From Saprospiraceae bacterium (GTDB lineage Bacteria; Bacteroidota; Bacteroidia; Chitinophagales; Saprospiraceae), in the NCBI GenBank assembly GCA_041392665.1, contig JAWKLQ010000031.1, positions 18 through 64,017 of the forward strand: a stretch of DNA of 64,000 nt. The letters are read 5' to 3'. A model generated the notes under the pieces. It was given only the letters and a program-made list of their open reading frames with translations, was not told where the DNA came from and ran no database searches. Each line of letters starts with the position of its first letter. The stretch's first letter is position 1. A program made the translations under genes and the position numbers. Shown in pieces: positions 14,030 through 37,502 of the stretch.

Positions 14030-14075
14030 TGCTTACTTTTGCGGGTACGAAATTAAGCATTATTTTTACCTCCGT

Positions 14076-15149
14076 ATGAGCAAATATCTTTTCGTGGTAC
14101 ACAGCAGCATTACCCTCCGCATGGCGCGGGCCGTTATCCACGAGAATGGATGGGAAAGAGATGATTGCATTTTTTTAAGTGACCGGGGATTTCAGCTTGA
14201 GAGCGAACCGGTTCAGGTGCTGGATATTACGCCTTATTTTATTCGTCCGGTCCGATGGAGGGAAAAGCAGCAATTATTTGAAACCTGCCGAACGAACAGA
14301 AAACAGCTTCAGGCACTGGATGTACTGATCACGTCAAAGATAGGTAGCCCATACCGTCTTTTTATCCCACATACACGGCCTTATGCTTATCTGGCCATGA
14401 TCCGCCATCCACTTTGTCTTCAGTATGCTTTTATTGAGGAAGGTACACTGAGCTACCGGACTGGTTTTTATAATTATGTCCATAATGCTTCAGCGCTGAA
14501 AAGGAAGTTGTTGCAGGGAATAATTCGTTATTGCCTGGGTCCGGGATTCCGGGCTTTCCCTGAATCCTTATCCTTTGATCATCCCAAATATGCCGGATGT
14601 TACGGCATTAGTAAGGATACTTTTCCTACTTTGCCCGACGAAGGAAAACATATTCTGCCACCTCCTTTTGAGCACAGAGAGGATTACGCAGTAATTGAGC
14701 ATTTACTGGTAACCGGCCCCTGGATTGAAAAAGGATATTGCAGCATTTCAGAATACCAAACTATGAAACGGGCTTTGTTTCGCTACTGGATAGGAGAAGG
14801 GATCGCTACCTTATACGTAAAGTTCCATCCGCAGCAATATCACGAACAGATATCTATTCCCGTTTTCAGAGATATTGCAAAAGCTTTTGCGGATAGGATC
14901 CAAGTTATTGAACTTCCTCCGGAAGCAGCACCGGAAGAGATTGCCTACAGCAGTCAGGCGGATTTTTATCTGGCATATAGCAGTACAACCATCTACGCAC
15001 GGCAATTCGGATGCCGGGTATTTTCCTACGCCAAACCCATGAGAGAGAATTGGCCGGCCTTTCGAAATTTTTTCGATCACCTCCCACCGGTGATCACTGA
15101 AAATATGATTTTATTAGATTTTCCTTTACAGTTTGACGGAAATAAATGA
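14076..15149 (+). CDS. Putative GT-B sialyl/nonulosonate transferase (polysialyltransferase-like)
   Basis: FIEEGT (D/E-D/E-G) and YVKFHPQ (HP) motifs. The ORF-track start at 14019 overlaps wzx, so MSKYLF at 14076 is preferred. The last codons and stop lie inside MITE copy 1. Confidence 0.7.
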   Translation: MSKYLFVVHSSITLRMARAVIHENGWERDDCIFLSDRGFQLESEPVQVLDITPYFIRPVRWREKQQLFETCRTNRKQLQALDVLITSKIGSPYRLFIPHTRPYAYLAMIRHPLCLQYAFIEEGTLSYRTGFYNYVHNASALKRKLLQGIIRYCLGPGFRAFPESLSFDHPKYAGCYGISKDTFPTLPDEGKHILPPPFEHREDYAVIEHLLVTGPWIEKGYCSISEYQTMKRALFRYWIGEGIATLYVKFHPQQYHEQISIPVFRDIAKAFADRIQVIELPPEAAPEEIAYSSQADFYLAYSSTTIYARQFGCRVFSYAKPMRENWPAFRNFFDHLPPVITENMILLDFPLQFDGNK

Positions 15150-15258
15150 AACAAATTTTCCTTAAGTTTTTAAAATTTCGAACGCCATCTTCTGATGGTC
15201 AATGGCTTATCGAAATATTGAAAACCTAAATTTGTTTCATTTATTTTTTCTCCGTCAC
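15128..15258 (-). mobile_element. 132-bp MITE, copy 1 (most diverged, 131 bp)
   Basis: Aligns along its full length with the copies at 18929, 24374 and 37371; ends are degenerate (ACAGTTTGAC...CCGTCAC); flanks TTT/GTT are not a clean duplication. Confidence 0.85.
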
Positions 15259-15290
15259 GTTGGAGGATAGAGCTGATTAAAAATAATTGA

Positions 15291-16466
15291 ATGGAAAAAG
15301 TTGTTGCCATTATTCCTGCACTTGAGGATACAGCTGCGGGACAAAATTTTCTAACCCGTCTTTTGTGTGGTCGTCCCCTCATTTTCTGGACGCTGGATGC
15401 CCTGCAGCAATGTCCGAAAGTCAAACAGATCATAGTGGCTACCAATAGTGATACGGCGGCTGCTTCATTGTTCCGGATGGAATTCTCAAAAATGGCAATC
15501 TACCGTACTGAAGCCCCGGATGTGATTAACTACGAGAAAATCGAAACATTACTATTGGAGTACCTTCGTCAGTCCAGACTGGCGAATGACGATATCTTTA
15601 TGTTGGTTGATTATACTTTCCCACTACATACAAGTAATCAATTCGAAGAGGCGCTGGGTCTAATGCACAGTATTGGAGCTTATTCGCTCTTCAGTGCGGT
15701 CCGCAACCGTCATTTTTACTGGACGCACGACGGGATCAGTATCAGTTATAACTACCGGAAACGTCCGTCAAAGGAAGAGCAACACAAAGAATTGCTTGAA
15801 ACGGAAGGTTTTTACTTCAGCAAAGTAGGTAGTTTTATTGCTAATATAAATCGCTTATCCGGTAAGATCGCAGTGTATGAAATGCCCTCTTACACCGCAT
15901 TTCAACTTCGGGAACCCATCGATTGGAAAATAGGTGAGCTTCTGATGCATCAATATCGTATCGATCATTCCAGAGAAGAGGGGTTTGGCCGGGTCAAACT
16001 TGTGGTGTCGGATGTTGATGGGGTCATGACTGACGGCAGTATGTACTATACGGAAAAAGGAGATGAGATCAAACGATTTCATACTTATGACGGCATGGCT
16101 TTTGGATTGATCCGGGAACAAGGGATCAAGACTGCGATCATCACTTCAGAGGATACTCAGATGGTTAATAACCGTGCAAAAAAATTAAAGATCGACTATT
16201 TGTATCAGGGACGACGACATGGTGGGAAACTTGCCGCAATTCAGGATATTTGTGAAAAGGAAGGGATCAGTCTGAGTGATGTAGTGTACATCGGTGATGA
16301 TATCAACTGCCGGGAAGCGCTGAGTGCAGTGGGTTTTGCTTTTTGCCCGGCTAATGCTACGCCGGATATACAGGCTCTGCCTAATATTATCTATCTGGAG
16401 ACGATGGGAGGAAGTGGAGTCGTGCGGGAAGTATATGAAAAATATTTGCGGCCCAGTTTTGAATGA
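15291..16466 (+). CDS. Fusion of a NeuA-like cytidylyltransferase-fold domain and a KdsC/Kdn-9-P-type HAD phosphatase
   Basis: N-half VAIIPA...IIVATNSD...FSAV; C-half SDVDGVMTDG (HAD DxD), IITS, YIGDDIN and GGSGVVRE. Confidence 0.88.
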   Translation: MEKVVAIIPALEDTAAGQNFLTRLLCGRPLIFWTLDALQQCPKVKQIIVATNSDTAAASLFRMEFSKMAIYRTEAPDVINYEKIETLLLEYLRQSRLANDDIFMLVDYTFPLHTSNQFEEALGLMHSIGAYSLFSAVRNRHFYWTHDGISISYNYRKRPSKEEQHKELLETEGFYFSKVGSFIANINRLSGKIAVYEMPSYTAFQLREPIDWKIGELLMHQYRIDHSREEGFGRVKLVVSDVDGVMTDGSMYYTEKGDEIKRFHTYDGMAFGLIREQGIKTAIITSEDTQMVNNRAKKLKIDYLYQGRRHGGKLAAIQDICEKEGISLSDVVYIGDDINCREALSAVGFAFCPANATPDIQALPNIIYLETMGGSGVVREVYEKYLRPSFE

Positions 16467-16540
16467 TGGATTTTGAGCTTTTTCAATTACCTGTACTCGC
16501 TGCTCTAATCCTGAGATTTTCTTAAACCGACTAGATTTCA

Positions 16541-17848
16541 ATGAAAAAAATACAGATCGATAAATCGCGCTCAACAAAGGACATTGCCGATCGGATCAGG
16601 GACCTGTTCCCTATCCATCGTACGCTGGTCAATGATGGCTATCGGATCTCGATGGATCGACTGAAGCAGGAACTGCCATTTGTGGTACACGAGATCCCGA
16701 GCGGAAAGCAGGTATTAGACTGGATTGTCCCGAAATCCTGGAATGTCAAGGTCGCAAGGATCAAAGATCCGGAGGGAAACACATTGATCGATTTTGCCGA
16801 TCACAATTTGCATTTGTCGGCCTATAGCCGGGAATTCAATGGCATCATCAGCCACGAAGAATTATTGTCACATCTAAATTTCCGGGAGGATCTACCGGAA
16901 GCCATTCCCTACAATTTTCACTATTATAAAAGCCACTGGTCGTTCAATCTAAGTTTCGATACCTTCCGGGAAAAATTTATCCACGACGGTTATGAAGTGG
17001 AAATGAAGATCAATGAGTATGATGATTTCCTGCGTATCGGGGAGATTTATCTGCCAGGTGAACGGGAAGAGGAAGTACTGATCACCTCCTATATGTGTCA
17101 TCCATCTATGGTGAATGATAACCTATCCGGGGTAGTGGTCACAACGGAGCTATTTAAATATTTGCAACAGGTAAAAGGATTGAAATATTCTTACCGGCTG
17201 ATCATTATCCCCGAAACCATCGGAGCTATTGCATACCTGGCAGAGTTCCCTGAAAAATGTGAGAAAGTGTTTGCCGGCCTTACCGCTTATTGCTGTGGAG
17301 GTAATGGTAAGTTGCATTACAAGAAAACCTACAGTGGTGAGACAATGATTGACGAAGTGGCAAAGTATTCATTCGATCAGTTTTATCCGGATGTCTCCGT
17401 CATCCTGCCTTTTTGGCCAGGAGGTTCGGACGAACGACAGTTCAATGGCACCGGAGTGCGTATGCCGATGGGGGCCCTCACCCGGATCCCTCCTGCGGAG
17501 TTCAAAGAATATCATACTTCTCTGGATACCCCGGAACTGATCTCTCCGGAAAGCCTGGTAGACACCCTGGAAAATCTAGCCACCATGATTAACGTGTTGG
17601 AAGCCGATAACCTATATGTAAACCATTACAAAGCCGAACCCTGTTTTTCCCGCCATGACATTGCTTACCCCACTTTTCGGGACGCATTGGCCAAATCAGC
17701 CGCCTATATTGTGAAGATCCTGGCCAATGAAGTAGATGGAAGCAATAGTCTGCTCGATATTGCCGTAAAATGGAACATGAACATTTTTGACCTGGCAGAG
17801 ATGGCGAGGGCTTTTGAAAAGGAGGGCTTGATCTCGGTTACGAGATAG
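16541..17848 (+). CDS. DUF4910/DUF2172 aminopeptidase-like (M28-fold) glycan-biosynthesis protein with C-terminal winged helix
   Basis: LFPIHRTL..DG, DWIVPKSWNV, DHNLHLSAYS, YMCHPSMVNDNLSG, GSDERQF, EYHTSLD and NEVDGSNSLLDIA. Confidence 0.88.
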   Translation: MKKIQIDKSRSTKDIADRIRDLFPIHRTLVNDGYRISMDRLKQELPFVVHEIPSGKQVLDWIVPKSWNVKVARIKDPEGNTLIDFADHNLHLSAYSREFNGIISHEELLSHLNFREDLPEAIPYNFHYYKSHWSFNLSFDTFREKFIHDGYEVEMKINEYDDFLRIGEIYLPGEREEEVLITSYMCHPSMVNDNLSGVVVTTELFKYLQQVKGLKYSYRLIIIPETIGAIAYLAEFPEKCEKVFAGLTAYCCGGNGKLHYKKTYSGETMIDEVAKYSFDQFYPDVSVILPFWPGGSDERQFNGTGVRMPMGALTRIPPAEFKEYHTSLDTPELISPESLVDTLENLATMINVLEADNLYVNHYKAEPCFSRHDIAYPTFRDALAKSAAYIVKILANEVDGSNSLLDIAVKWNMNIFDLAEMARAFEKEGLISVTR

Positions 17849-17924
17849 TGATCGTTTAGAACGGTGTTCGTTTGCCCTTGTTTTTGATGAATGGAGTATG
17901 GGGAACGAATAAACCGACGAAACC

Positions 17925-18932
17925 ATGATACCAATGAAAAAATACCTGGAATATCCCGTTTTCATCTGTGGCCACCGTAAGACCGGTACCACGATGCTGG
18001 TGAATTTGTTTGATGGTGCGAAGGATGCAGTCGTGTTTCCTGATGATAGCACTTTTTTCTATATGTATTTCCCCCGCTATGTGGGAGAACGGTTCTCGGT
18101 TGAAGAAAAGCGAGAACGGCTCGCTAATGTGTTGGTAGGGGAGGTGCACCGGAAAAAGATCGCCAAGGCTAATTGCACGGAAGCCGAAAGAGAAAAACTC
18201 ATGGGACAACTGGAGGATTTCCGGGCGGAGATCCTTACCTGGCCGGCTGAAGATTTTGAACTAAAGCAGGTTCTTCCAAAATTTATCGACGGCTACAATC
18301 GCTATTTCCAGCGGGTGGAGCATCCGAAAGTCTGGATCGAAAAAACAACCAGTACGGAGATCTACGCACTGGAATTGCTTGACAATTTCCCAAACGCCAA
18401 ATTCATTCACATCATACGCGATCCTCGTGATAATTGGGGCTCGCTGCTCTCCGGCTGGGAACAGCGCTATAAGGAATACAACGACGAAGTGAATCGCTTA
18501 AAACAAAGCTTGATAGAACGCAGCGGCCTTGGCTTTCAAATGGCTATGGCCAATGAGGATGTAATGGGGAAAGATCGTTATCGCATCGTCCGCTTTGAAG
18601 ATGTCACGGCCGATCCACAGCGCTATATCCGGGAATTGGCCGAATTCATCGGTATCGACTATAGTACGGACCTTTTGTATCCTTCAACATTCGGCTATCG
18701 CTGGGAAGGCAACAACTTTGACGGAGAGAAATTCTCGAAACCTTCTACCGTTAACGTCAATCGCTGGCGGGACCGGATCAGTGAAGCGGATGCCCAACTG
18801 ATCGAATTTCATTTTCGGGAAGCCATGGATCATTTCGGCTACGATCGGGTATTTGACCGGGCGGATTGTATACGGGCTGCTGCTGCCCATTACAAGTGGT
18901 TCAACTTCTCTACACCATTTTCGGCAAAGTGA
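17925..18932 (+). CDS. PAPS-dependent sulfotransferase
   Basis: 5'-PSB loop ICGHRKTGTTML, WIEKT, 3'-PB motif IIRDPRDNWGS and VRFEDV. Start may be 17934. The stop TGA lies inside MITE copy 2. Confidence 0.9.
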   Translation: MIPMKKYLEYPVFICGHRKTGTTMLVNLFDGAKDAVVFPDDSTFFYMYFPRYVGERFSVEEKRERLANVLVGEVHRKKIAKANCTEAEREKLMGQLEDFRAEILTWPAEDFELKQVLPKFIDGYNRYFQRVEHPKVWIEKTTSTEIYALELLDNFPNAKFIHIIRDPRDNWGSLLSGWEQRYKEYNDEVNRLKQSLIERSGLGFQMAMANEDVMGKDRYRIVRFEDVTADPQRYIRELAEFIGIDYSTDLLYPSTFGYRWEGNNFDGEKFSKPSTVNVNRWRDRISEADAQLIEFHFREAMDHFGYDRVFDRADCIRAAAAHYKWFNFSTPFSAK

Positions 18933-19060
18933 CGGGGCAAAAATAAATGAACCAATTTTAGGCTTTTAATATTTTGCTAAGCCATTGACTAACAGGAGAT
19001 GGCGTGCGAAATGTTCAAAACCTACAGAAAAAATTGGTTCATTTATTTCCGTCTAACTAC
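18929..19060 (+). mobile_element. 132-bp MITE, copy 2
   Basis: GTGACGG...AAATAAATGAACCAATT---AATTGGTTCATTTATTT...CTAC, flanked by AAA on both sides (18926-18928, 19061-19063). Confidence 0.9.
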
Positions 19061-19089
19061 AAAGTGTTCTGGGATGAATACTGATCACA

Positions 19090-19842
19090 TTAGCTCTTTT
19101 GAAATCCCAGATACTCCCCGATCTTGAAAGCCAGTATCTTTCCCCATTTCATCTTTCGGGGACTATAATGATTAAAGTAGCGACTAACTTCCCAGACCAG
19201 TCTTTTGCGTTTAAGGAAACTTTGTTTGGCGACAAAGGATTCCGGATGCTGCCGGTAAAAGGTAAGCGGTTCCTGCAAGATCCTCCGCCGGCCCCTGATA
19301 ATACTCTGTACGTGGATGCGGTTGTCGAACCAGATCAACCGGAATGCTTCGTTGATGGGGAACATGCTTGCCATAAACTCCCGCTCGGCCACCAGACAGC
19401 TGGTTGCGGCTATATAACCTACCATGAATCGCTCGCGTACATCTTCCAGGGTAGCCTCCGGAATATGCGGTTCACCGGGAGTATAGCTGTGGGCCAGCAG
19501 ATCAAAAGGTCGTTCCTGATATTCGCTTATTACTCTATCAACCTTGTGTGGTAAAAATGCATCGTCCCCATCCAGTAAAAAAATGAGCTGTCCGGTAGAG
19601 AGGTAGAAGGCCTCCTGGATACCATGTGCCTGATTGAGCATGGAGGTTTTTCCGTAATTGGGATGATGGATGAGTTTGGCTTCAGGAAATTTTGCGATCT
19701 CCTCTAAGGACTGATCGGTGCTTCCGTCGTCGTAAACGATCACTTCAATTTCGTGGGTAGTTTCCTGCCCGAAAGCACTCTCCAGGCATTCTCTTATGTA
19801 CGGTCCGTTGTTGTAGTTGTTGATCAGGATGCTAACCTTCAT
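19090..19842 (-). CDS. GT2 glycosyltransferase
   Basis: VSILINNYNNG, VYDDGSTD, LLDGDD and LTFYRQH. Confidence 0.92.
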   Translation of the reverse strand: MKVSILINNYNNGPYIRECLESAFGQETTHEIEVIVYDDGSTDQSLEEIAKFPEAKLIHHPNYGKTSMLNQAHGIQEAFYLSTGQLIFLLDGDDAFLPHKVDRVISEYQERPFDLLAHSYTPGEPHIPEATLEDVRERFMVGYIAATSCLVAEREFMASMFPINEAFRLIWFDNRIHVQSIIRGRRRILQEPLTFYRQHPESFVAKQSFLKRKRLVWEVSRYFNHYSPRKMKWGKILAFKIGEYLGFQKS

Positions 19843-19861
19843 GCGCTGTATTTAATTCACT

Positions 19862-21037: not shown

Positions 21038-21331
21038 TAAAGGTTGACTTGTTGTTATGGCTTTCTGCAAATCAAATAGAACACGGTATCTCCATATCGC
21101 CTTTTCAGATATCTGTTGCGGAAAGCGATTGCGCTAAAAATAAGGATTCGATTTTGATTTCCCGGGATTTGAAAGTTTACTTTTTTATTAATTCTAAGGC
21201 TGACGGCAAACGGTTTCCGATGAACTGTTATTGATGCATAAATCTTCGTTTCAGGTAGCACTTCTATGGTTTATCATGTTTAGCGCACCTCTGGCCGTCT
21301 ACTATGCTTTGATTACTGTGTTCAAGATGAA

Positions 21332-21372
21332 TAAGAGCCCTCCTGATCCAAATGGGCTCGGGAGGGCTCTTA
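21332..21372 (-). terminator. Intrinsic terminator after the TonB-dependent receptor gene
   Basis: TAAGAGCCCTCC...GGAGGGCTCTTA inverted repeat about 30 bp past the stop at 21403. Confidence 0.7.
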
Positions 21373-21402
21373 TACACATTAAACTAAAGCTTTTGCCCTG
21401 GA

Positions 21403-24289
21403 TTAGAACTTGTGGCTGATGCCCAATCCGATAGTTGTACCAGGATTAATGCTGTTAAAGATCTGGTCTCTGGCCTGATAAGACTGATAAAGGCTTTCAG
21501 TACGGTCATTCAGGATATTGGAAACCTGTAGATCAATAGAAGTATTTTGATCCTTGCCGAATTTCTTGGCAATGCTGAAATTGAGACTGTGGAAAGGTTG
21601 GAAATAAATATCCGGATAAAGACCGCCACCAACAATTTCCAGCGTCTTACCTTTTACGTTGTAGAACAAACCGGCATCCCATCCCTTGTCCTGATTAGCA
21701 TAAGCCAGACCGGCATTGATCACGAAAGGTGCCTGACCGGCCATCTGACGGGTATCGGCCAGATTCTCGCCGTTTCTTTCGAAATTCTTGCGGGCATTGA
21801 ATTCGGTATTCGTCATATCAATGATAGACTCTACGAACGTCACATTACCGCTGAAGCTCAGGTTCTCCAGAGAAGGAGAAATGAAGGCCAGCGTTTTACG
21901 GATTTCCAGTTCTACACCATACAAACGACCGTCACCTACGTTACGCGGCTGGAATTCGGTACTCGTCTGCTGTTCGGGAATGCGGACCAGTTCGATAGGA
22001 TTGTCGAACTGCTTGTAGAAAGTACTAATGGAAAACAGCTGACCACCTTCCTGGAATAACTCCCAGCGCAGGTCAAAGTTATTGATCCGGGTTTCGCTCA
22101 ATACACCGCCCCAGTCACCATAACTGAAAAGGGAACCGTTAAAGATCCGGTTGGTGATCGGGTCCAGGATCTGTGCGTAAGACAACTCTTTGAAAGAAGG
22201 CCGGGCGATGGTACGGGAATAAGAAGCCCGCAGGTTCTGATTGTCAGTGAGCGACAGGATAAGATTGGCCGTCGGGAAGAAATCCAGATTATCCAGTACT
22301 TTCTCGTTGTCCAGATTCTTACCGTTAGCTACATCTCCACTGGCATAAGCCTGGTCGCGGCCGGTATGGCGTTGCACAAAGTTCTCGGCTCTCACTCCAA
22401 TAATGGCCTTCAGGTTGTTGAAGGGCGTAAATTCATTGGAAACATAAAAGGCCGAATTGTTCACGTTAGATGAATAAGCGTTCGGGTTCGGAATGGGGTT
22501 ACCTGACTGAAAATAGATCCGATTGGGCCGGTTCGGGTAGATGTATTCGGGGCTCAATACTACCGATGGATCCGGATTCGGCCAATCCTGTCCGCCAAAG
22601 AACTGAACATCGAAGAACAGGATCTCGTAATCCCGCTCCTTATATACGTGGCTGCCCCCGAACTTGAACTTGGCATCCTCACCGTTGAATTCATAGCTCT
22701 TGGTCAGATCGAACTTGGCCACCGCGTTTACTTCGTTCCAGAGAGCGCCAGATCCGACTGAAGTTCCACCTGCCGGCAGAAAAGGTGCCGGCTGAAGTCT
22801 TGGTAAATGCTGTTTTACGAATATCAGGGTCATCCGAAGTGGAGAAAGTAGGAGACAGACGCCAGTCCAGTTCCCAACCAGATTCTTCTCCCCCCAGCAG
22901 GTGACGACCACCGAGGAAGAAGTTAGTCAGTGAACGTTCGTTGTATTCGAGGTTATGAGAGTTGGCGAAGTAGCCGGATTGTCCAACTGCTTCTCCGTCA
23001 TTATCGATATCAAAGATACCGGCGCGGTTTTCACCGTTTTGCAAACGCATGGCCGTTAAACGGATCTTACTATTGGCCGTTTTGTAAGCCAGGCCGCCCA
23101 AAGCGCCGATCAATACGCTCTGCTCACCTATCTGACCGTTCTGGATAGTCGCGTAACGCAATTCATACTGGCTTGGATCACTATAGCGTTGATATTCGCT
23201 GTAGATCACATCATCGTAATACTTGTATCCGTTCTTGTAGGACAGAGAGAAAATATATCCGAATTTCTTATCGGCGCTCAGATCTAACTGGTTGCCAAGG
23301 GAGATCCCTGCACTGTAATCAATAAAGCTGCTTTTGCGTTGTGCACCCAATACCGGGCTGAAACTGCGCACAAACTGATTCACCTGATCATCCGAAGCCC
23401 CACTGATCGGAGTCGGTATGTTCTCGGCATCGGCTCCTGCGGGCAGCGCTCTGGTGCCGTCATCATAACCCAACCAGTCGGTATTACCGCCTTCATAGGT
23501 CAGCCAATCCTTATTGAAGTGCATATTGGGGTTGTACGAAGTACTCAGCGATACGCTGAAGATCTTTTCTTCCGGAAAATCTTTCGTTTCAATATTCATT
23601 AGGCCCCCGGTAAAGTCGGCCGGCATATCAGCTGTAAAGTTTTTGCTTACCACCAGGTTATCCAGCAAAGTGGTGGGGAAAATGTCCATTTGCAGGGTAT
23701 TACGGTCGGGGTCCAGGCCCGGGATTTCCACGCCATTTAGGGTTGTTTTGGAGTAGCGGTCACCCAAGCCGCGAACATATACATACTTTCCTCCTTCTAT
23801 AGAAACTCCGGTCACCCGCTTAGCCGCTTCAACGGCAGTGGCGTCACCGGTCAATTGCATTCTGGAAGAGGAAATACCGTCCACCATGGCCGGAGCTTGT
23901 TTTTTGAGCAGTAGGAGCGCTGTTTCGGTCTTGCGAATGGCACTGGCCTTTACCACTACCTCGTTGAGGGTCACATTGTCTTCAGATAATGTGATCTCTC
24001 CCAAAGCAGTCACCTCGCCGGCAGCCACTTCAATGTCTTCAATGGTTAAGGTTTGAAAACCGATATAAGTAATCTGAATAGCGTAAGTACCTGGAGCTAC
24101 CTGAATGGCAAATGCACCGTCCAGGTCGGTTACAGATCCTATGGATGCATCGTCCTTGAGGGTTACGTTGGCACCAATAACCGTCAGTCCTGAACCTGCC
24201 TCAATAATAGTACCGCGAATGGTACCGTTTTGTGCAGAGATGGCAGAAACAAAAAAAGAGAAAACTAAAATAGTGAGTATTCGCCTCAT
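21403..24289 (-). pseudogene. TonB-dependent receptor (CarboxypepD_reg-like N-domain, plug, barrel) split by a frameshift near 22735-22780; true pseudogene or sequencing error
   Basis: ORF 22691-24367 (start MRRILT at 24289) carries the plug motif YVYVRGLGDRY. ORF 21403-22911 carries the barrel and C-terminal GISHKF. Sense reading switches frame at SRIWRSL / EVNAVAKFDL. Confidence 0.85.
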
Positions 24290-24373
24290 CTGATATAAAG
24301 TATTAAAAATTGAGAATGAGAAGGCCTGCCATTTATGGGGAGACCTTCTCATTTTATGTAGGTTCACCCTTTA

Positions 24374-24505
24374 GTGACGGAGCAAAAATAAATGAACCAA
24401 TTGTAGGTTTTTAATATTTCGTTAAGCCATTGACTATCAGGAGATGGTGTGCGAAATTTTCAAAACCTCTAGAAAAAATTGGTTCATTTATTTCCGTCAA
24501 ATTAC
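24374..24505 (+). mobile_element. 132-bp MITE, copy 3
   Basis: Flanked by TTA on both sides (24371-24373, 24506-24508); nearly identical to the reverse complement of copy 4. Confidence 0.92.
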
Positions 24506-24540
24506 TTATTGAGTTCCCCTCGGAATATTAAGAGACTATC

Positions 24541-26016
24541 TTAAAAACCGTCCAGTGTACCACTTTCAACTGCCCAGGTCCAGCTAAAGCCGGTCAGGTC
24601 AGCAGTGGGTGCACCACCGGCAACGATACCTGCAGGGATCGGAGTGCCATTTACGTGGCTGCCCAGTTCGTCGGCCGGAACATCCAACATGATGTTAGTG
24701 TAGAATACCAGAGGAGCGGTGATCCGGTTGATCATCTGTCCGTCGTTAATACCCGTAATGAAAATGTTTTCCAGGGTAACCTCTGTATTAGCATCGGTAT
24801 TGATCAGGTCTTCAGACGGACGATCAGCCGTACTGGCAATAACCAGACCATTTTTAATCGTATGACTTCCATGAGCAGTTCCTTCCGGACCGTCAAGCTC
24901 GAAGCAGTGACCTGCAGGTGCAATTACTACGAAGTTGTCCAACGTACCAGCCCAGGCCTGGTCGGTGTCAACACCGTCATCACCAACGTTCCAGGAGATC
25001 AGGTTGGTAACATTTACTGTACCACCGAAGAATTCGATAGCATCATCCTGGTTGGATACGATCTCCACATTATCGATAACCGTACCGCTACCAACACCAC
25101 CCAGAGACAGGCCGTTGATCTCGTTACCGGAACCGATGTTAGTACCGCCGTGGCGGATGGAAACATACTTGAATACACCAGAGTTGTCGGCGGGATCATC
25201 ACCACCGTACAGACCATTGGTATCAGAAGTCGGGATACCTTCGATCTGAACTTCACTTACATCTTCGTCATTGTCATTAGAAGCAGAGATCGGGGCTTTA
25301 CCCAGAATGATCACACCACCCCAAAGACCGTTGATTACCGGATCGAGGTTCGGGCTGGCGTAGTTGCCGGCAGCGATATCTTCACCGGTGATCTCATCGG
25401 CAACAGAGGTGAAAATGATCGGCAGTTCAGCTGTACCTTCAGCCATGATCGTACCCCCACGGGCGATCAGCAGCGCCGTAGCATTAGCTGCAGCACCGGC
25501 CTGGCCTTTGATCACGGTACCCGGCTCGATGGTCAGGGTTACACCGTCTACAACGGTAATACGGCCACCCAGGATGTAGGTTTTGTCGGCCGTCCAGGTT
25601 GCATCAGCCGTAATATTGCTGGTCAGCAGAATTTCATTGGGATCTTCAGCGATGTTGATCACAGCAGTAGCCTGATCAGATTGACCTTCAGAGTCAGTTA
25701 CTTTCAGAGTGATAGCCGCAGCACCGGCAGTTGTACCGGCGTCATAGTTGACAGTTACAGAAGAGCCACTTACAGAACCTGAACCGTTAGTTACCGTTAC
25801 GCCAGAACCGGTTGCAGTGTACGTAGCAGTCAAGGCAGCATCGACGCTAACGGTGAAAGTGAGAGACTGACCGGTAGCTCCATTCTCTACGTTCTGTACA
25901 CCAGAAGGTGCCGTTACAGTAGGTTGGTCGTAAGTAGTAGCCGGATCGTCTTTTTTACAGGATGTATAAAGAAGTACAGCAAAGAGCAAAAATAAGCTCG
26001 ATAATTTAAGTTTCAT
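24541..26016 (-). CDS. Lipoprotein with Ig-like N-domain and right-handed beta-helix domain (TBDT-associated family)
   Basis: Lipobox YTSCKKDD; motifs TLTIEPGTVIK, PIIFTS, WGGVIILG, NSGVFKYVSIRHGG, EINGL, DDAIEFFGG and DDGVDTDQ. Confidence 0.85.
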   Translation of the reverse strand: MKLKLSSLFLLFAVLLYTSCKKDDPATTYDQPTVTAPSGVQNVENGATGQSLTFTVSVDAALTATYTATGSGVTVTNGSGSVSGSSVTVNYDAGTTAGAAAITLKVTDSEGQSDQATAVINIAEDPNEILLTSNITADATWTADKTYILGGRITVVDGVTLTIEPGTVIKGQAGAAANATALLIARGGTIMAEGTAELPIIFTSVADEITGEDIAAGNYASPNLDPVINGLWGGVIILGKAPISASNDNDEDVSEVQIEGIPTSDTNGLYGGDDPADNSGVFKYVSIRHGGTNIGSGNEINGLSLGGVGSGTVIDNVEIVSNQDDAIEFFGGTVNVTNLISWNVGDDGVDTDQAWAGTLDNFVVIAPAGHCFELDGPEGTAHGSHTIKNGLVIASTADRPSEDLINTDANTEVTLENIFITGINDGQMINRITAPLVFYTNIMLDVPADELGSHVNGTPIPAGIVAGGAPTADLTGFSWTWAVESGTLDGF

Positions 26017-26073
26017 ACAATGATATTTTTGGTTGATCATAATTCGGCGCAAATGTCTCTACCACGCAATAAT

Positions 26074-26105: not shown

Positions 26106-26280
26106 GTCATTCAGGGCTCGAAAGGTGTGGGATTATGGTAGGTTCTATTGGTGTAGGTTCGGAGGATCTTAGATTTGTTAGTAGCGTTTCAAATTCGGGG
26201 CAAAATTCGCACGACTATATGAACTGAGAATTAAAGCGGTGTTAAGTAATTGTAAATAAAACACTAACTTTTCACGGCCA

Positions 26281-26436
26281 CTTCGTTGACGACCGTTCAC
26301 TGCGCTCCCCGACACTGCGTGTATGGAGCAGGCACTGACGGACGATGCGATTTTCAGTGCGCCTGACGGCCGGCATGCTTCCGCAAAAGCTTCAGCGATA
26401 TGCGGGCGTCAGGCACGACAAGGGAGTGCCGTCCGT
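26281..26436 (-). repeat. CCGTCAG mosaic repeat, copy D (directly after the aceK stop)
   Basis: The reverse complement of 26333-26372 (GGCCGTCAGGCGCACTGAAAATCGCATCGTCCGTCAG) matches 41351-41387 and 42521-42558. Confidence 0.7.
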
Positions 26437-28182: not shown

Positions 28183-28237
28183 ATTATATTAGGACTTGGT
28201 GCTTGGTATTGGGTATCCAGACGTTCTAAGGGTGAGT

Positions 28238-28684: not shown

Positions 28685-28933
28685 ATGAAGTTGGAATTTT
28701 GCGAAAAATTAAGGACTTGATCAAGGAATGCCTTAATAAATTTGAAGCATAGCCTCCTGACGCATAAGGCCGGGAGGCAAGTCTTTAGCTTTACATGGCA
28801 ATAATACTAAATGTCTAAACGTCTCAGGGCTTATTTATCTTTTTAGACATTAATTGCAAATATTTGGTTAATCGTCTAGACCTGTCCGGAAAGACTGCCG
28901 AAATTTTAACATTTTTGCGGAGCGTAGTTTTTT

Positions 28934-30769: not shown

Positions 30770-30864
30770 AGAGTGCGAGGGTGAATTCGTGATATAGCTG
30801 CCATTTTATTTCCAAATTATCACCATATCGCCACGTCACCACATCACAATATCACCATATAAAA

Positions 30865-31869
30865 ATGACCAATATCCGCCTCCGCATCCTTTCCTTTGTT
30901 GTGATCGCCTACATGCTTATGGCTTTCACCTGGTGGTCGGTTCTATTGTGGAAAACGCTGGAGGACGCTTTTCAGGCCAAGAGCTACCTGATGAAGATCG
31001 GTATGATCGCCGAGGGAAGGATCAGGACGGATTACGATTTTTACCGTTCGGAAGATTATCTTCAGCTGGAGCAGGATTATGAACGTCAGCAGTGGATGGT
31101 GGCCGGCGAAGGCATCTTTTTTGTGATCAGCCTGGTCATGGGGGTTTGGCTGATCAACCGGGGGTACAACAAAGAAGTGCACTCCACACAGCAAAGAAGA
31201 AACTTTCTCTTGTCCATCACCCATGAGCTTAAATCACCGATCGCATCCATTAAACTGGTACTGGAAACCATCCGAAAGCGGAGAGAGAAACTCTTGCCCG
31301 AGCAGATGGATAAACTCACCAACAGCGGCTTGCAGGAGGCCGACCGGCTAAATACCCTGGTCAATGACCTTTTGCTGTCGGCCAAGCTGGAAACGGCCTA
31401 TCAAATTCACGCCGAACACTTCAATCTGGACGAATTTCTGCAGGATATGATCTGGAAAATGGAAGAGCGGCACTCCGATGCGGATTTTCATTACCACAGT
31501 GATGCTCCTGGTCTGATCGTGGAAGCGGATAAAATGGGATTGACTTCCGTGGTGGGGAACCTGTTGGAAAACGCGGTTAAATACTCCCGTAAAGGCGCCG
31601 TGATCCGGATGGAATTAGTACAGAAAGCTCGATATTGCACGATCACCATAGCTGATAATGGGATAGGCATACCCAACGAAGAAAAAGATCGCATTTTCGA
31701 TCGGTTCTACCGGGTAGGTAATGAAGATACCCGCACAACCAAAGGCACCGGTTTAGGGTTGTTTATAGTGAAAGAGATCGTCCGGGCCCATGGTGGTACC
31801 ATTGAGGTCAGCGATAACGAACCCAACGGAAGTATTTTTAAGATCACTATACCCACCAGACTGAAGTAA
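30865..31869 (+). CDS. Sensor histidine kinase
   Basis: Two TMs, ITHELKSPI H-box, NLLENAVKY, DNGIGI and GTGLGL. Confidence 0.95.
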   Translation: MTNIRLRILSFVVIAYMLMAFTWWSVLLWKTLEDAFQAKSYLMKIGMIAEGRIRTDYDFYRSEDYLQLEQDYERQQWMVAGEGIFFVISLVMGVWLINRGYNKEVHSTQQRRNFLLSITHELKSPIASIKLVLETIRKRREKLLPEQMDKLTNSGLQEADRLNTLVNDLLLSAKLETAYQIHAEHFNLDEFLQDMIWKMEERHSDADFHYHSDAPGLIVEADKMGLTSVVGNLLENAVKYSRKGAVIRMELVQKARYCTITIADNGIGIPNEEKDRIFDRFYRVGNEDTRTTKGTGLGLFIVKEIVRAHGGTIEVSDNEPNGSIFKITIPTRLK

Positions 31870-31887
31870 CGACTTAATGTATAGACT

Positions 31888-32571
31888 ATGGCTCGAATAT
31901 TATTGGTAGAAGATGAGGAAAGCTTACGCGAATCGCTCAAGCTAAATCTGGAATTAGAAGATTATGAAGTGGTAGCCGCAAATAACGGCAAGGATGCCCT
32001 CAAGCATTTCCACGAACAGCATTTTGATCTGGCAGTGCTGGATGTTATGCTTCCTGAAGTGGACGGTTTTCAGATCTGCGAGCAGATTCGACTGACGAAT
32101 CTGGATCTACCGGTAATCTTCCTTACCGCGAAGGATACGGCTTTCGATCGCATTTCCGGTTTGAAAAGAGGAGCCGACGATTACATTACCAAACCATTTA
32201 ATCTGGAAGAATTGCTACTGCGCGTCAACAATCTGATCCGTCGCACCAGCAAGTCGCCGGAGAATACTCCGGAAATTTATGAGTTCGGCGGTAACCGGAT
32301 CAACTTTGTTACTTACGAAGCTACTGCTAACGGCAAGACCTTCGCGTTGACCAAAAAAGAGGCTATGTTGCTGAAGTTGCTGGTTGACCGTCGCAATGAA
32401 GTGGTGTCCCGTCAACAGATCCTGCAGTCGGTATGGGGGTATGATGTGTATCCTTCTACCCGTACTATCGATAATTTCATCCTTTCCTTTCGCAAATATT
32501 TTGAAGAAGACCCCAAGAATCCTGAGTACTTCCTTTCCGTGCGGGGAGTAGGTTATAAGTTTGTGGGATAA
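31888..32571 (+). CDS. OmpR-family response regulator
   Basis: ILLVEDE, LDVMLP, FLTAK, DDYITKPF and winged helix RTIDNFI..RK..E...SVRGVGY. Confidence 0.95.
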   Translation: MARILLVEDEESLRESLKLNLELEDYEVVAANNGKDALKHFHEQHFDLAVLDVMLPEVDGFQICEQIRLTNLDLPVIFLTAKDTAFDRISGLKRGADDYITKPFNLEELLLRVNNLIRRTSKSPENTPEIYEFGGNRINFVTYEATANGKTFALTKKEAMLLKLLVDRRNEVVSRQQILQSVWGYDVYPSTRTIDNFILSFRKYFEEDPKNPEYFLSVRGVGYKFVG

Positions 32572-32584
32572 GCACGTCTGATGG

Positions 32585-33325
32585 TCAACGATCCTCCGTC
32601 AACCGCTTTAGTACTTCTGGGGTCGCCGCTGCCGTGCTGAGCGGCAGGGCCACCAGAAACCCGATACCCGTCATCAACAGGAGGACAAAGATGGAGCCGT
32701 TACCAATGGCCAGCCAGCGATAATCTCGTACAAAGCGGATGCTGCCCTTAACATTCAGATGGCGTTCCAGGGTATAATCCATACTGCCGAAGCCGGCGTA
32801 ATAAGACTGGATCAAAAAGATCCCCGCTACAACAAATGGACTGAAGAATGGGATCAGCCCGACCAAGAGTAATAGTAAAGTGAAGAATAACTCCCGGCTG
32901 ATATTGCGCAATGCAATGCGGAGTCCGCGAATGATCTCGCGCAGCATTCTCCCGGAGGTATAAGGAGACGACACTGCGTATAAACCACTTCTTTTCTCTA
33001 TACGTTCGCTGAGTTTGCTCATAAAGGGAGACGCCAGTGCCATTACCAGGTTCTTGTATAGGATCAGACCTACAGAAGCCAGTAACAGGCTACCGAAGAA
33101 AACACTGATCCTGCGGATAGTCTGCTGTCCGGTCTCCCAGGGATATAGATCGGATATCCAGCGACCGACATCATCGCCGAGATACCAGGCGACGCTGAAA
33201 ATAATCCCTGCCAACAGCACACTGATCAGCGCCGGGACCAGAAAAAAAGACCAGAGTCGCATCGACTTGATGAGCTGCAGGGCCCGACTGTAAGCAGAAA
33301 TACCAATGAAAAAGTTGCGGAACAT
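32585..33325 (-). CDS. EI24/CysZ-like membrane protein
   Basis: LASPF...LSERIE, YYAGFGSMDYTLER and four to five TM segments. Confidence 0.8.
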   Translation of the reverse strand: MFRNFFIGISAYSRALQLIKSMRLWSFFLVPALISVLLAGIIFSVAWYLGDDVGRWISDLYPWETGQQTIRRISVFFGSLLLASVGLILYKNLVMALASPFMSKLSERIEKRSGLYAVSSPYTSGRMLREIIRGLRIALRNISRELFFTLLLLLVGLIPFFSPFVVAGIFLIQSYYAGFGSMDYTLERHLNVKGSIRFVRDYRWLAIGNGSIFVLLLMTGIGFLVALPLSTAAATPEVLKRLTEDR

Positions 33326-33454
33326 AGATCTTCATTTTTTAGCCCGGGAGCTTGTCTCCATCGATTGATTGACATGTAAATGTACTTCGCTGTGATCTAT
33401 TCCTGCCACATCCATCTACTAATATCAGAATTCTATCGATGGGCTTATGTGACC

Positions 33455-34873
33455 TCACCGTCGCAACTTACTCGCTACCCATTCCCGTATCGGTAAATAT
33501 TCCTGCTTCAACTCGGTAACGGCAGTTGGAGCAGTTTCGGAAAAAAGCTGCTCGTGTAGCGCCGCAAAAGCAGTCGGTAGATCACTTTCACCCAAATGGG
33601 AAGCTTTCGAAAAAAAACGAAGCAGCGCCTTTTCGTATACCTGTAGCGGGCGGGTTTTAATCAGCCAGCGTTTGGTACTGTCTACGAAGTAGCGAAGCAC
33701 AAAGTAATTTTTCAATTCCAGATGGACCATAAGATTAAGCCAGTGACCGTATGTTTTCAGGTCTTCCCGGGTAGACTCAAATTTGTGATTGAGCATTTGA
33801 TTGATCCAGTGCAGCGAGGCTGTGTAATTGGCCTGTAGAAAATACAGATAGGCAAACTGATACCAGAATGACAGCAGATAACCGGGAGGAATATTAGACT
33901 GCTCCCGCTCCATAAAAGCCCTGATCTGCTGAATGCTTTCACCTGCGGCCGGGAAATTCCGATTGTAGCGATAAATTTCCAGCTCCAGATTATAAGTGCG
34001 TAAGATCAGCCGCAGCAAAGAAGGATCGATGCGCTTCAACTGATTGAAATAGGTTTTGGAAAGTGTGATCCAGGGCATGGCCTCTTCGTAACGACCTGAC
34101 CATACCAGTAGTGCCAGAAGATTATTCAGGGTCGTTGCCCATAAGTGTAGATTTTCCGGGATCAGATGTGGTTGATCTTTCCAAAGATTCAGCTCGGCAA
34201 GCAAAGCTTCCAGCGCCTGTTCCTGAGCCTGTTTTCCCTGGAAGGACTGATAATAGATCCAGTTGGCGTATAACGTTCGGTTGCTTAGGTACCATTGTTC
34301 GTTCGGTTTTTCGGCAATGTCTTGTTCCAATCCCAGCATCAGCCCCCGTAATCTGCTCTCCCGGTCCATACGCTGTAAGCTTTTGCGTTGTGCTTCCACG
34401 CAAATGCGCACTGCCTGGAGATCAGCGGGAGACTTGGCCTGCGTGAGTTGGCGCTGCCAGTCGGCAATTTCCCATTCCAGATAGGGCAGCTCACTGCGGG
34501 AGGCCAGTTTGGTCGCAGTCTGTAAAATGGCCAAGCATTGATCAAAAAGTCCCTTTCGGAACAGGATCTCCACGGTGCGGAGCTGATCCTGTATTGCTAC
34601 CTTTGTCGATATGCTACTGTGATAATTTCGTAAAGACTTCAGGATCAGATCGTACAGGTAGCGCTTAGTCAGATGAAAATGTTGGATCGCCTTTTCACCA
34701 CGAAAATGCTTTCGGAGGGCCTGCTCATCATAGGCATTCTGTTGGTCAATGGCGTCAAAGAGCTGCTGATATAGCGCTTTGCTCTTGTTATGCTGACAGA
34801 ACAGCCGGAAGTAGCGCTTTTCCGATGGTGACAGGCTTTTAATAAGTTGATGTAGATGTACGGACTTGGGCAT
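33455..34873 (-). CDS. Conserved hypothetical alpha-helical/TPR-like protein (LIKSLSxSEKRYF family)
   Basis: 472 aa, no signal peptide; N-terminal LIKSLSPSEKRYFRL...LFDAI...KRYLYDLILKSLRNYH; helical repeats with YQFAYLYF. Confidence 0.8.
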   Translation of the reverse strand: MPKSVHLHQLIKSLSPSEKRYFRLFCQHNKSKALYQQLFDAIDQQNAYDEQALRKHFRGEKAIQHFHLTKRYLYDLILKSLRNYHSSISTKVAIQDQLRTVEILFRKGLFDQCLAILQTATKLASRSELPYLEWEIADWQRQLTQAKSPADLQAVRICVEAQRKSLQRMDRESRLRGLMLGLEQDIAEKPNEQWYLSNRTLYANWIYYQSFQGKQAQEQALEALLAELNLWKDQPHLIPENLHLWATTLNNLLALLVWSGRYEEAMPWITLSKTYFNQLKRIDPSLLRLILRTYNLELEIYRYNRNFPAAGESIQQIRAFMEREQSNIPPGYLLSFWYQFAYLYFLQANYTASLHWINQMLNHKFESTREDLKTYGHWLNLMVHLELKNYFVLRYFVDSTKRWLIKTRPLQVYEKALLRFFSKASHLGESDLPTAFAALHEQLFSETAPTAVTELKQEYLPIREWVASKLRR

Positions 34874-34909
34874 GGTGGAAAGAATATTACCGGACCGTAA
34901 TATACCGTA

Positions 34910-35863
34910 TTATTCCCGTACGCCGGCTCGCCGTAAACGGTCATTAATGGCCCGGCCCAGGCCTTCTTCGGGCAGCGTTTCGGCCAGGATAATGTCAATG
35001 TCCATGGCATCCAATCGGCGAAGGGAGGCGAAAAGCAGTTGTGCGGCTTCCTCCAGCTTGCCCGACGGCGACAGCAGGATCTGATGATCCGGATAGATGT
35101 CGGGTAGTCCTTCCTGAAATGCCAACACGCCTGTTCGTAAACGATCTCTTCCTTCCCGCAGCGTTTGCAGATTACCCAGCAACAGGGGCACGCGGGGCGC
35201 ATAATGACTCTTTAACATACCCGGTGCCTGAGGATTACTGCTGGAATGTTCTCTAACTCGCACCGGCCCGGCAACGGCTTCGATCTTTTCAACAGAAAGC
35301 CCGCCTTTGCGGAATACGGTCAAATGACCGTCCTCCAAACCGACAATGGTACTCTCCAATCCCACCCGACAGGGGCCGCCATCCAGAATATAGGGGATCT
35401 TTTCACCGAGTTGATCGGCTACATGTTGGGCGGTCGTCGGACTAATATAACCGAAAGGATTGGCACTGGGTGCCGCCAGTGGGAAATTGAGTTGAGCCAA
35501 AAGTTCCTGGCTCATCGGATGCGCGGGCAGCCGGACCGCGACCAGAGGTGAGCCGGCAGTTACCAGATCGGGAATGATCGCCTTTTTTTCGAGGAGCAGG
35601 GTTAGCGGGCCGGGCATGAAAGTATCCGCCAGAATGCGAAGGATCGGTGGCAGGGGATGGGTCCAGGCTAAGATGCGATCGATAGAACTGGTGTGAAGGA
35701 TGAGCGGATCGAAACTCGGCCGGTTCTTGACGGCAAATATCCGGGCAACGGCTTTTGTATCCAGGGCATTGCCAGCCAGGCCGTAGACCGTTTCGGTCGG
35801 AATGGCAACCAACTCACCGGAAGCTAGTAAAGATGCTGCGTAATTCAGGTCGGTACCGATCAT
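34910..35863 (-). CDS. tsaC: L-threonylcarbamoyladenylate synthase (Sua5/YwlC type with C-terminal SUA5 domain)
   Basis: AIPTETVYGLA, KNRPSFDPLILH, PGPLTL, APSAN, GLESTIV, APGMLKSHYAP and GLGRAINDRL. Confidence 0.95.
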   Translation of the reverse strand: MIGTDLNYAASLLASGELVAIPTETVYGLAGNALDTKAVARIFAVKNRPSFDPLILHTSSIDRILAWTHPLPPILRILADTFMPGPLTLLLEKKAIIPDLVTAGSPLVAVRLPAHPMSQELLAQLNFPLAAPSANPFGYISPTTAQHVADQLGEKIPYILDGGPCRVGLESTIVGLEDGHLTVFRKGGLSVEKIEAVAGPVRVREHSSSNPQAPGMLKSHYAPRVPLLLGNLQTLREGRDRLRTGVLAFQEGLPDIYPDHQILLSPSGKLEEAAQLLFASLRRLDAMDIDIILAETLPEEGLGRAINDRLRRAGVRE

Positions 35864-35969
35864 GTCATTCTTGAAAATTGGCGGCAAAAATAGCAAAAAA
35901 CCAGGCACCTGGCACCCACTAGCCGGTACCGTAACCTATATTTGTAAGAAATCAACCAATCCCTAACCC

Positions 35970-37304
35970 GTGCTGTATAACTTTCGCATTAATATTGTCA
36001 TTCGGCTGGTGATCATCTTTCTATTGCTGATCTCGGTTATTACCGTTTTCGAAAAGGACGAACTACAGATGCTTCCGATTTTTCTGATCTTAGTTGTGTT
36101 GGTGATCACAGTATTCAATTTGTTTTACTACGTGGATCAGACCAACCGGGATCTGTCTAATTTTCTATCCAGTATCAAATTCAACGATTATACGACCACC
36201 GCCTCGGCGGCGCACCGGGGTAGATCCTTCGGTCAGTTGTACGATGGCTTTAATCTGATCAACCGGAAGTTTCAGGAAGTACGTGCCGAGAAAGAGGCTA
36301 ACCATCAGTTTTTACAAACAGTGGTAGAACACATCAATATTGGCCTGCTTTGCTATAACGAAGAGGAAGAAGTGATCCTGATGAATAAATCCCTGCAGTC
36401 GCTGCTCCACAAATCCTATCTCATTAATCTGGAGGGATTGCGGGCGGTGGACGATAAACTTTTCGAGACCATTCGGGCACTCCCTTCCGGGGAACGAACA
36501 CTTACCAAAGTGATCATCGACAATAAGTTGTTGCAGCTGGCTATTCAGTCAACAGAGCTCACCCTAAATAAGAATCGCCTCCGGCTGGTATCCTTCCAGA
36601 ACATTCAAAGTGAACTGGATGCCCAGGAGCTGGTGGCCTGGCAAAAACTCATCCGCATTCTTACCCATGAGATCATGAACTCGGTAGCGCCTATCTCTTC
36701 CCTGAGTTCTACCCTGAAGGACATCGTCGGCGAAAAATCGGAACTGGACCCCGATGCGCTGAAAATGGTGCGTCATTCACTGGGCGTGATCCAGAAACGC
36801 AGCGAAGGTCTGATGGCATTTACGGATACCTATCGGGAACTGACCCGGATCCCACCGCCCAAATTCCAGCTGGTGGACGGTGAAGAGCTGCTGCTGGAAA
36901 CGGAAACACTGTTTAAGGCCAGGATCGACCGGCAACAGTTGCATTTTCAGATCCATACACCGCCCTCCCCGGTACATTTTCAGGCAGATCCCAACCTGCT
37001 GGAACAGGTGTTGATTAACCTCATTAAAAACGCCATGGATGCACTGGAAGGCCAGGAAGATGCGGCCATCAATGTTCATCTGCAAAAAAATGCTACGGGC
37101 AAAGTGGTGATCCAGGTAGCCGATAACGGTCCGGGTATACCACCGGAAAAGCTGGATCAGATATTTGTACCATTTTATACTACAAAGGAATCCGGTTCGG
37201 GTATCGGTCTGAGCTTGTCCCGGCAGATCATGCGTTTGCACAAAGGAAGCCTTGAGGTGCAATCTGTACTTGGACAGGGATCTGTTTTTAGTCTTACGAT
37301 TTAA
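35970..37304 (+). CDS. NtrY-like sensor histidine kinase with PAS domain (no cognate regulator adjacent)
   Basis: Two N-terminal TMs, AWQKLIRILTHEIMNS, NLIKNAMDA, DNGPGI and GSGIGL. Confidence 0.92.
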   Translation: MLYNFRINIVIRLVIIFLLLISVITVFEKDELQMLPIFLILVVLVITVFNLFYYVDQTNRDLSNFLSSIKFNDYTTTASAAHRGRSFGQLYDGFNLINRKFQEVRAEKEANHQFLQTVVEHINIGLLCYNEEEEVILMNKSLQSLLHKSYLINLEGLRAVDDKLFETIRALPSGERTLTKVIIDNKLLQLAIQSTELTLNKNRLRLVSFQNIQSELDAQELVAWQKLIRILTHEIMNSVAPISSLSSTLKDIVGEKSELDPDALKMVRHSLGVIQKRSEGLMAFTDTYRELTRIPPPKFQLVDGEELLLETETLFKARIDRQQLHFQIHTPPSPVHFQADPNLLEQVLINLIKNAMDALEGQEDAAINVHLQKNATGKVVIQVADNGPGIPPEKLDQIFVPFYTTKESGSGIGLSLSRQIMRLHKGSLEVQSVLGQGSVFSLTI

Positions 37305-37370
37305 CTCCTGTGCAATTAATCCAACCTAAAGAGTCCGGAAATAAAAAAATCAATAAATTTGCCCTCCTTA

Positions 37371-37502
37371 GTAGTTTGACGGAAATAAATGAACCAATTT
37401 TTCCTAGAGGTTTTGAAAATTTCGCACACCATCTCCTGATAGTCAATGGCTTAACGAAATATTAAAAACCTAAAATTGGTTCATTTATTTTTGCTCCGTC
37501 AC
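37371..37502 (-). mobile_element. 132-bp MITE, copy 4
   Basis: GTAGTTTGACGG...CTCCGTCAC flanked by TTA on both sides (37368-37370, 37503-37505). Confidence 0.92.

Follow-up and report, generated by a model that had tools for sequence, protein, structure and literature searches.

The 64,000-nt stretch of contig JAWKLQ010000031.1 that we analysed (Saprospiraceae bacterium, assembly GCA_041392665.1; hereafter the window) contains four intergenic copies of a short repeat. These are very probably copies of a MITE (miniature inverted-repeat transposable element), that is, a non-autonomous cut-and-paste DNA transposon of 132 bp, which is non-coding and represents over nearly all of its length a single imperfect palindrome. 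The copies are named c1 to c4 in window order, and a fifth known copy, L117, lies on a metagenome contig. The positions proposed for the four copies in a first-pass annotation of this DNA proved exact, with lengths of 131-132 bp:

15128-15258, minus strand: c1, 131 bp, which with 85-88% identity to c2-c4 has diverged the most
18929-19060, plus strand: c2, 132 bp, in the space between a sulfotransferase gene and a GT2 gene, which are convergent
24374-24505, plus strand: c3, 132 bp, in the spacer between a beta-helix gene and a SusC-like gene
37371-37502, minus strand: c4, 132 bp, in the spacer between a histidine kinase gene and metH

Alignment of the four stretches shows that their similarity extends from GTGACGG to ...AAACTAC. 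Pairwise identity in blastn ranges from 84.6 to 97.7%, the upper value belonging to c3 and c4, while c2 is about 91% identical to either of them. Neither blastn with a word size of 7 nor an nhmmer profile revealed a fifth copy in the window. Every copy has stop codons in all six frames and therefore no coding capacity, and the GC content of the element (30-36%) differs from that of the window (44-50%).

The family consensus is GTGACGGAGCAAAAATAAATGAACCAATTTTAGGTTTTTAATATTTCGCTAAGCCATTGACTATCAGGAGATGGCGTGCGAAATTTTCAAAACCTCTAGAAAAAATTGGTTCATTTATTTCCGTCAAACTAC, in which the left end GTGACGGAG..., the right end ...CCGTCAAACTAC and the 17-bp subterminal arms are conserved. The perfect 17-bp repeat described in the first-pass annotation (AAATAAATGAACCAATT) is located at positions 13-29 counted from either end of c2, c3 and c4, and this 17-mer has eight matches in the window at three or fewer mismatches, one per arm per copy, versus 0.4 expected. 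The claim does not extend to c1, where each arm bears two substitutions, mirrored on both arms (AAATAAATGAAACAAAT); similarly, the GT...AC termini ascribed to the element are those of c2-c4, and the right end of c1 is ...CTGT, unlike the ...AC of the other window copies. This copy is from a rarer subfamily with mirrored arm substitutions, which has a lower depth excess. A subfamily with GAGACGG ends is represented by L117 and other copies. When metagenome contigs are mapped on c4, the termini show no variants at or above 10% across the family, and such variants are present in the interior.

Each copy folds as one long imperfect hairpin (-49.4 kcal/mol, z = -8.1 versus shuffles), which agrees with the initial description of the element as largely a hairpin. 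A known RNA family was rejected as the source of this structure: nothing in Rfam 15 reaches the gathering score anywhere in the window, and the matches below the cut-off are to generic long hairpins (plant microRNA precursors), with 16-31 bits versus cut-offs of 65-119. An intrinsic terminator was rejected as well, as no terminator-like site was called inside the scanned copies c1-c3 and the stem has no T-run after it.

Transposition should be recorded in the flanks of the copies as target-site duplications (TSDs). The L117 copy, detected among metagenome contigs with a gapped two-arm pattern, occupies positions 740-871 of an unrelated contig, with an identity of 79-83%. Its insertion point coincides exactly with the TAA stop codon of a small gene ending in Gly-Gly, and a second TAA follows at the other end of the copy. 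A 49-nt element pattern gave no match to the metagenome contigs. The flanking triplets of the five copies are the following:

18926-18928 and 19061-19063: TSD of c2, AAA/AAA, exact
24371-24373 and 24506-24508: TSD of c3, TTA/TTA, exact
37368-37370 and 37503-37505: TSD of c4, TTA on the plus strand, TAA/TAA in element orientation, exact
15125-15127 and 15259-15261: degenerate TSD of c1, TTT versus GTT on the plus strand (AAC/AAA in element orientation), two of three bases match
both flanks of L117: TAA/TAA in element orientation, exact

The exact 3-bp duplications include the three reported earlier (c2 AAA, c3 TTA and c4 TTA on the plus strand) and amount to four in five copies, while all five copies match at 2 bp. 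The duplicated sequence differs between copies and is the same within a copy, c1 excepted. A scan in which either boundary was shifted between -4 and +4 and the length was set at 2-5 bp comprised 324 boundary/length choices, among which the alignment-defined boundaries with 3 bp stand out. The window-wide chance of a 3-mer match at copy spacing is 0.020, which gives P = 8e-7 for four exact matches in five and P = 2.6e-4 after correction; the enrichment of TSDs that had been proposed as a check is thus seen over the five copies. The duplications are TAA/TTA in three of the five copies (the others are AAA and AAC/AAA), and in most family contigs the match to c4 runs on past both of its ends into TTA, an indirect sign that the family prefers T(A/T)A targets.

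The same duplications bear on the possibility that the repeat is a REP/BIME-like palindrome moved by a single-strand Y1 transposase (RAYT or IS200/IS605-type). Such an origin would agree with the folding of the whole element into a hairpin, and its right end, (C/T)TAC, resembles the cleavage sites of IS608-type elements. However, Y1 transposases leave no TSD, whereas the triplets found here vary between copies yet match within them; in addition, the element is 3-5 times as long as a REP, and no Y1 transposase domain occurs in the window open reading frames (ORFs) scanned. We consider this origin highly improbable, and an element derived from REP/RAYT or IS200/IS605 was rejected on the contrast between the duplicated, copy-varying triplets and the fixed target without TSD expected of it.

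A further record of insertion is provided by related genomes. The relative contig JGI Ga0376081_0000910, which encodes a MetH 90% identical and a beta-helix protein 78% identical to those of the window and keeps the gene order, is uninterrupted and element-free at the sites of c4 (L118) and c3 (L126), and a second relative (L119, 88%) is also empty at the c4 site. A reconstruction of the window that keeps a single triplet aligns collinearly with the empty sites, the TTA/TAA position aligning once. Empty orthologous sites had been named beforehand as a check on the transposon interpretation, and they were found at both loci. In the relatives, only the 132 bp and 3 bp are missing, rather than a gene cassette, and by this alignment an integron attC or another site-specific recombination site is refuted. 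The size and the imperfect palindrome are indeed like those of chromosomal attC repeats, but the copies occur in both orientations, 4-13 kb apart and genome-wide, their ends are GTGACGG...AAACTAC and not RYYYAAC...GTTRRRY, and there is no integrase among the ORFs scanned, so that we regard such an origin as barely conceivable.

No element copies were found in about 130 kb of related genomes, and this absence, together with the empty orthologous sites, indicates that the family expanded after the lineages split. As judged from these comparisons, the transposition burst would postdate the split from the relative whose MetH is 90% identical.

The host of the family is an uncultured Saprospiraceae-like member of the Bacteroidota from activated sludge. 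The window encodes type IX secretion system sorting domains and a SusC-like receptor, and proteins named Saprospiraceae or Lewinellaceae share 73-75% identity with its MetH. The locus was found only in wastewater and activated-sludge metagenomes; element words occur in the runs that hold the locus, plus a few others labelled activated sludge or metagenome. For estimating copy number, contigs of four wastewater runs (X1-X4) were mapped to c4, and the depth over the centre and arms of the element was compared with that of the flanks, the arms counting about double because they are palindromic:

X1: centre-arms 1864-5500, flanks 17
X2: centre-arms 624-1746, flanks 5.8
X3: centre-arms 350-975, flanks 5.1
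X4: centre-arms 447-993, flanks 4.9

The depth of the centre and the extreme tips relative to the flanks corresponds to about 50-170 copies per genome equivalent in X1-X4, and the ratio of element to flank depth is stable across samples and keeps pace with the abundance of the host from study to study. Each element end is crossed in X1 by 31-32 contigs; the long ones listed are mostly of depth 15-20, which is the host depth, and the junction flanks are mutually discordant (consensus agreement about 0.5). The depth excess, combined with junction contigs that have host depth and differing flanks, demonstrates a dispersed family of the order of 10^2 copies in the genome, which bears out the large genome-wide family supposed from the four window copies.

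Short derivatives of the element are present at single-copy depth in X1-X4 (joints 37403>37478 and 24398>24474; loose ends 24471-24473). In some of them, the two arms are joined via a loop of 4-5 nt (TGAA/TTCAG), forming a hairpin of about 62 nt, and in others, a GAGACGG tip adjoins the right arm with nothing in between. Loose ends at 37402 were considered as an alternative interior and rejected, since most represent the other arm read in reverse, with one pair in X3 as an exception. Contig extension off the window ends yielded one Logan contig, which holds no new copy, and one protein absent from the records.

All the testable features that define a MITE, save an identified partner, are present in this family: small size, lack of coding capacity, inverted-repeat arms, 3-bp TSDs, many dispersed copies and empty orthologous sites, and the interpretation offered in the first-pass annotation is upheld. 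We suggest that a transposase encoded elsewhere in the genome would bind the conserved ends (GTGACGGAG... and ...CCGTCAAACTAC) and the 17-bp subterminal arms, cut the target (usually T(A/T)A) with a 3-bp stagger and integrate the element there, with repair of the stagger giving rise to the 3-bp duplication. When transcribed, the inserted element would add a long hairpin to the neighbouring messenger RNAs (mRNAs).

The family is apparently undescribed, as it had seemed at first sight, although it belongs to a well-known kind and overturns no current understanding: the arm sequence was not found in the searched literature. No transposase or integrase domain occurs in the 29 window ORFs scanned, in line with the initial reading. 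The 17-mer arm has at least 115 chance single matches in unrelated taxa of a genome collection of 596 Gb, with no real copy among the matches listed. The element has no match in the viral contigs scanned or, by blastn, in the plasmid collection, and a protein search with its six-frame peptides (spurious ORFs over other copies) gave no match. Contigs mapped to the bare 48-nt ends contain no interior similar to an insertion sequence (IS), their overhanging parts being unreported as loose ends.

As the search for an autonomous partner came up empty, the transposase is unproven, and DDE chemistry and the enzyme family (IS5-related/Harbinger-like in the first-pass annotation) are inferred. Our best guess, which is a tentative one, is a partner from the IS5 family (IS1031/IS427/ISL2-type, the bacterial kin of PIF/Harbinger); an enzyme of this type is favoured because of the T(A/T)A bias and the existence of the GAGACGG-ended subfamily. 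A 3-bp TSD fits the IS5 subgroups IS1031 (3 bp, ends GAG), ISL2 (2-3 bp) and IS427 (2-4 bp), and it also fits IS3 (ends TG), IS30 (2-3 bp) and IS982. This is why a partner from another family with TSDs of 2-4 bp (IS30, e.g., IS4351 of Bacteroides; IS3; IS982; ISAzo13) is to be considered possible, if somewhat doubtful: the length of the TSD alone does not single out IS5, the AAA duplicated at c2 is not a T-N-A target, the main subfamily begins with GTG, unlike the GAG/GG of the IS5 groups, and IS30-family elements are common in Bacteroidota. On the other hand, TAA/TTA, which is found in three of the five TSDs, is the classic target of PIF/Harbinger and IS1031-type elements, most family members match through TTA on both c4 flanks, and the GAGACGG-ended subfamily (L117 and others) does exist; for IS3, the ends TG...CA are unlike those of this element. 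Both ISL2 and IS1031 elements of the IS5 family occur in Bacteroidota (PMC3196728).

Several observations weigh against the interpretation of the repeat as a MITE. The flanking triplets were read base by base in five copies only, one TSD being AAA (c2) and one imperfect (c1), and the target preference of the whole family has an indirect sign, namely the reach of contig matches into the TTA flanks. The outermost 12 nt contain no clean inverted repeat: GACGG pairs with CCGTC, but 5 nt of the left arm bulge out. A longer (autonomous) element with the same ends was not found in the scans of public collections. Finally, an empty-site allele within the host population was seen in none of five metagenomes from 2015-2025, in which contigs drop rare variants; hence, there is no sign of current activity.

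The hairpin itself appears to be conserved. Of the 245 pair cells that the five copies provide, 97% hold a standard pair, and in 7 of 49 pairs both sides are changed with the pairing kept (two each in the arms and the middle stem, and three in the apical stem), versus 1.9 +/- 1.2 in shuffles, none of 500 reaching seven, and 0-1 in slid controls. These data, obtained from five sequences, are suggestive of a hairpin kept by selection. Mirrored changes in the arms would be explained by subfamilies co-evolving with the transposase. In quasi-palindromes, mirrored changes can also arise by template switching, with no selection involved, and this could explain the remaining compensatory changes in the same way.

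The other feature of possible significance for the host is a promoter-like box in the left tip of the element. The -7 promoter motif of Bacteroidota is TAnnTTTG, and it is matched by the native box of metH and by the boxes borne by three copies:

37354-37361, plus strand: native metH -7-like box TAAATTTG (TAnnTTTG); c4 is inserted 9 nt downstream, separating the box from metH
37486-37493, plus strand: element-borne outward box TATTTTTG of c4, 9 nt from the left tip, facing metH
24383-24390, minus strand: element-borne box TATTTTTG of c3
18938-18945, minus strand: element-borne box TATTTTTG of c2

Upstream of metH, TAnnTTTG is kept in four relatives (L118, L119, L121 and L122), the nn positions being variable, and because c4 follows this conserved native box by 9 nt, we infer that it lies at the very start of the metH transcript. 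Read outward, the left tip is TATTTTTG-CTCCGTCAC, which contains the TAnnTTTG match, and in c4 this box is only 3 nt further from metH than the native one. With both strands counted, the window has 37 occurrences of the motif, which corresponds to about 0.08 chance matches per element. Copies c2-c4 have the TATTTTTG box, which c1 and L117 have lost, and no variant at or above 10% is seen at the box positions family-wide. Judging by these sequences, the left tip may carry a portable -7 promoter box. In c1, TAAATTTG stands at 15227-15234 on the plus strand in place of TATTTTTG. The left end faces the start of the downstream gene in c1, c3 and c4, and does not in c2 and L117.

An alternative suggested by these data is that the host has selected the element chiefly as a structured module of RNA or DNA (an untranslated-region hairpin, a portable promoter or an insulator), in which function, and not recent transposition, maintains the sequence. 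In addition to the pairing-keeping double changes, three of which are in the apical stem far from the ends, this would agree with the outward box, which in c4 is approximately where the native metH -7 box acted, and with the presence of element words in a metatranscriptome. However, it leaves the TSDs and the empty sites unexplained and at most adds to the interpretation as a MITE; moreover, five sequences were compared, mirrored changes can arise by template switching, and the orientation of the copies relative to the neighbouring genes is inconsistent. The metatranscriptome holds the element sequence, but its contigs cannot reveal start sites or separate read-through from promotion, and DNA carry-over is possible. 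For these reasons, we consider a module of this kind unlikely. It is also improbable that the hairpin is kept by selection and the left tip is a working -7 promoter, so that insertions deliver a portable promoter plus a structured 5' leader, the box of c4 replacing the native one at metH.

Insertions of this MITE have also affected the surroundings of the genes. The first bases of c2, GTGA, supply the TGA stop codon of the sulfotransferase ORF 17925-18932 (plus strand), which without c2 would be 20 residues longer, and c1 supplies a tail of six residues with a stop codon (QFDGNK*) to ORF 14019-15149 (plus strand). Gene callers will report altered C-termini for both ORFs. The two copies are contained in a surface-polysaccharide cluster (7691-19842) with genes for a hexapeptide transferase, a CMP-sugar synthase, NeuB, a methyltransferase, GT2s, a flippase, a HAD/cytidylyltransferase, a DUF4910 protein and a sulfotransferase.

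Copy c3 is situated between the stop codon of the beta-helix gene (24541-26052, minus strand) and a terminator-like hairpin, with the ATG of the SusC-like gene 85 nt downstream. This GC-rich hairpin (GAGAAGGTCT...AGGCCTTCTC), followed by a T-run (24305-24350, minus strand), separates the beta-helix and SusC-like genes; it is common to the relative (L126, approximately 11545-11600), and c3 landed just upstream of it. The SusC-like TonB-dependent receptor gene is split in the window into overlapping ORFs 21403-22911 and 22691-24367 (minus strand; overlap 22691-22911). Over 22735-22779, the contigs of three independent short-read runs all depart from the window sequence, with five small indels and three substitutions, and the orthologue in L126 (11650-14508) is one intact gene of 952 aa. 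The split is probably a local patch of assembly errors in the window and not a real pseudogene.

Two more side observations were made. In a relative whose MetH is 81% identical, the histidine kinase-metH spacer (L122:9670-9730) contains about seven tandem heptamers GTAGTC(A/G). ORF 33455-34873 (minus strand, 472 aa) has no Pfam match and is located between EI24-like and Sua5 genes; L121 has it too (473 aa), and the closer relative L118 lacks it.

This repeat of about 100 copies is one of the main reasons why genome bins of this wastewater lineage are fragmented, because the short-read contigs mapped to the four sites all break inside element copies. Knowledge of the consensus aids scaffolding and annotation and flags the ORFs that falsely end inside copies. 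The family adds a high-copy MITE to the Saprospiraceae-like Bacteroidota, for which no description of MITEs was found in the searched literature, and metH with c4 offers a natural setting in which to test whether a MITE delivers a promoter in Bacteroidota.

MITEs have a precedent in this phylum, namely MITE239/464 and BrickBuilt of Porphyromonas gingivalis (PMC2575886, PMC4596501), which differ from the present family in being from another class of Bacteroidota, larger and, by description, unrelated in sequence. The hairpin-forming MITEs ERIC/IRU and RUP are alike in size (107-127 bp), in being imperfect palindromes over the whole length and in transcription within neighbouring mRNAs, but differ, by description, in hosts, sequences and targets (RUP and IS630-type elements use TA), and kinship in sequence is not expected. 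The Correia elements of Neisseria (NEMIS/CREE) resemble the family in size (100-155 bp), in having about a hundred or more copies, in intergenic location, in the long hairpins of their transcripts, in possible outward promoter pieces and in having no known transposase nearby; however, they duplicate TA (2 bp), have unrelated terminal repeats of 26 bp and are restricted to Neisseria, while the duplication here is 3 bp long and at c2 is AAA, without TA. Tourist-like MITEs of the PIF/Harbinger group (e.g., mPing) and the IS5-derived bacterial MITEs (IS1031/IS427/ISL2) share with the family the short non-coding sequence, the inverted-repeat ends, the 3-bp duplication of mostly TAA/TTA, the high copy number and the sites near genes. 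The differences from them are the AAA duplication at one copy, the ends GTG...AC of the main subfamily rather than GAG/GG, and the general architecture: theirs consists of two short terminal repeats around unrelated DNA, whereas the element described here is a near-complete palindrome with a 60-bp stem.

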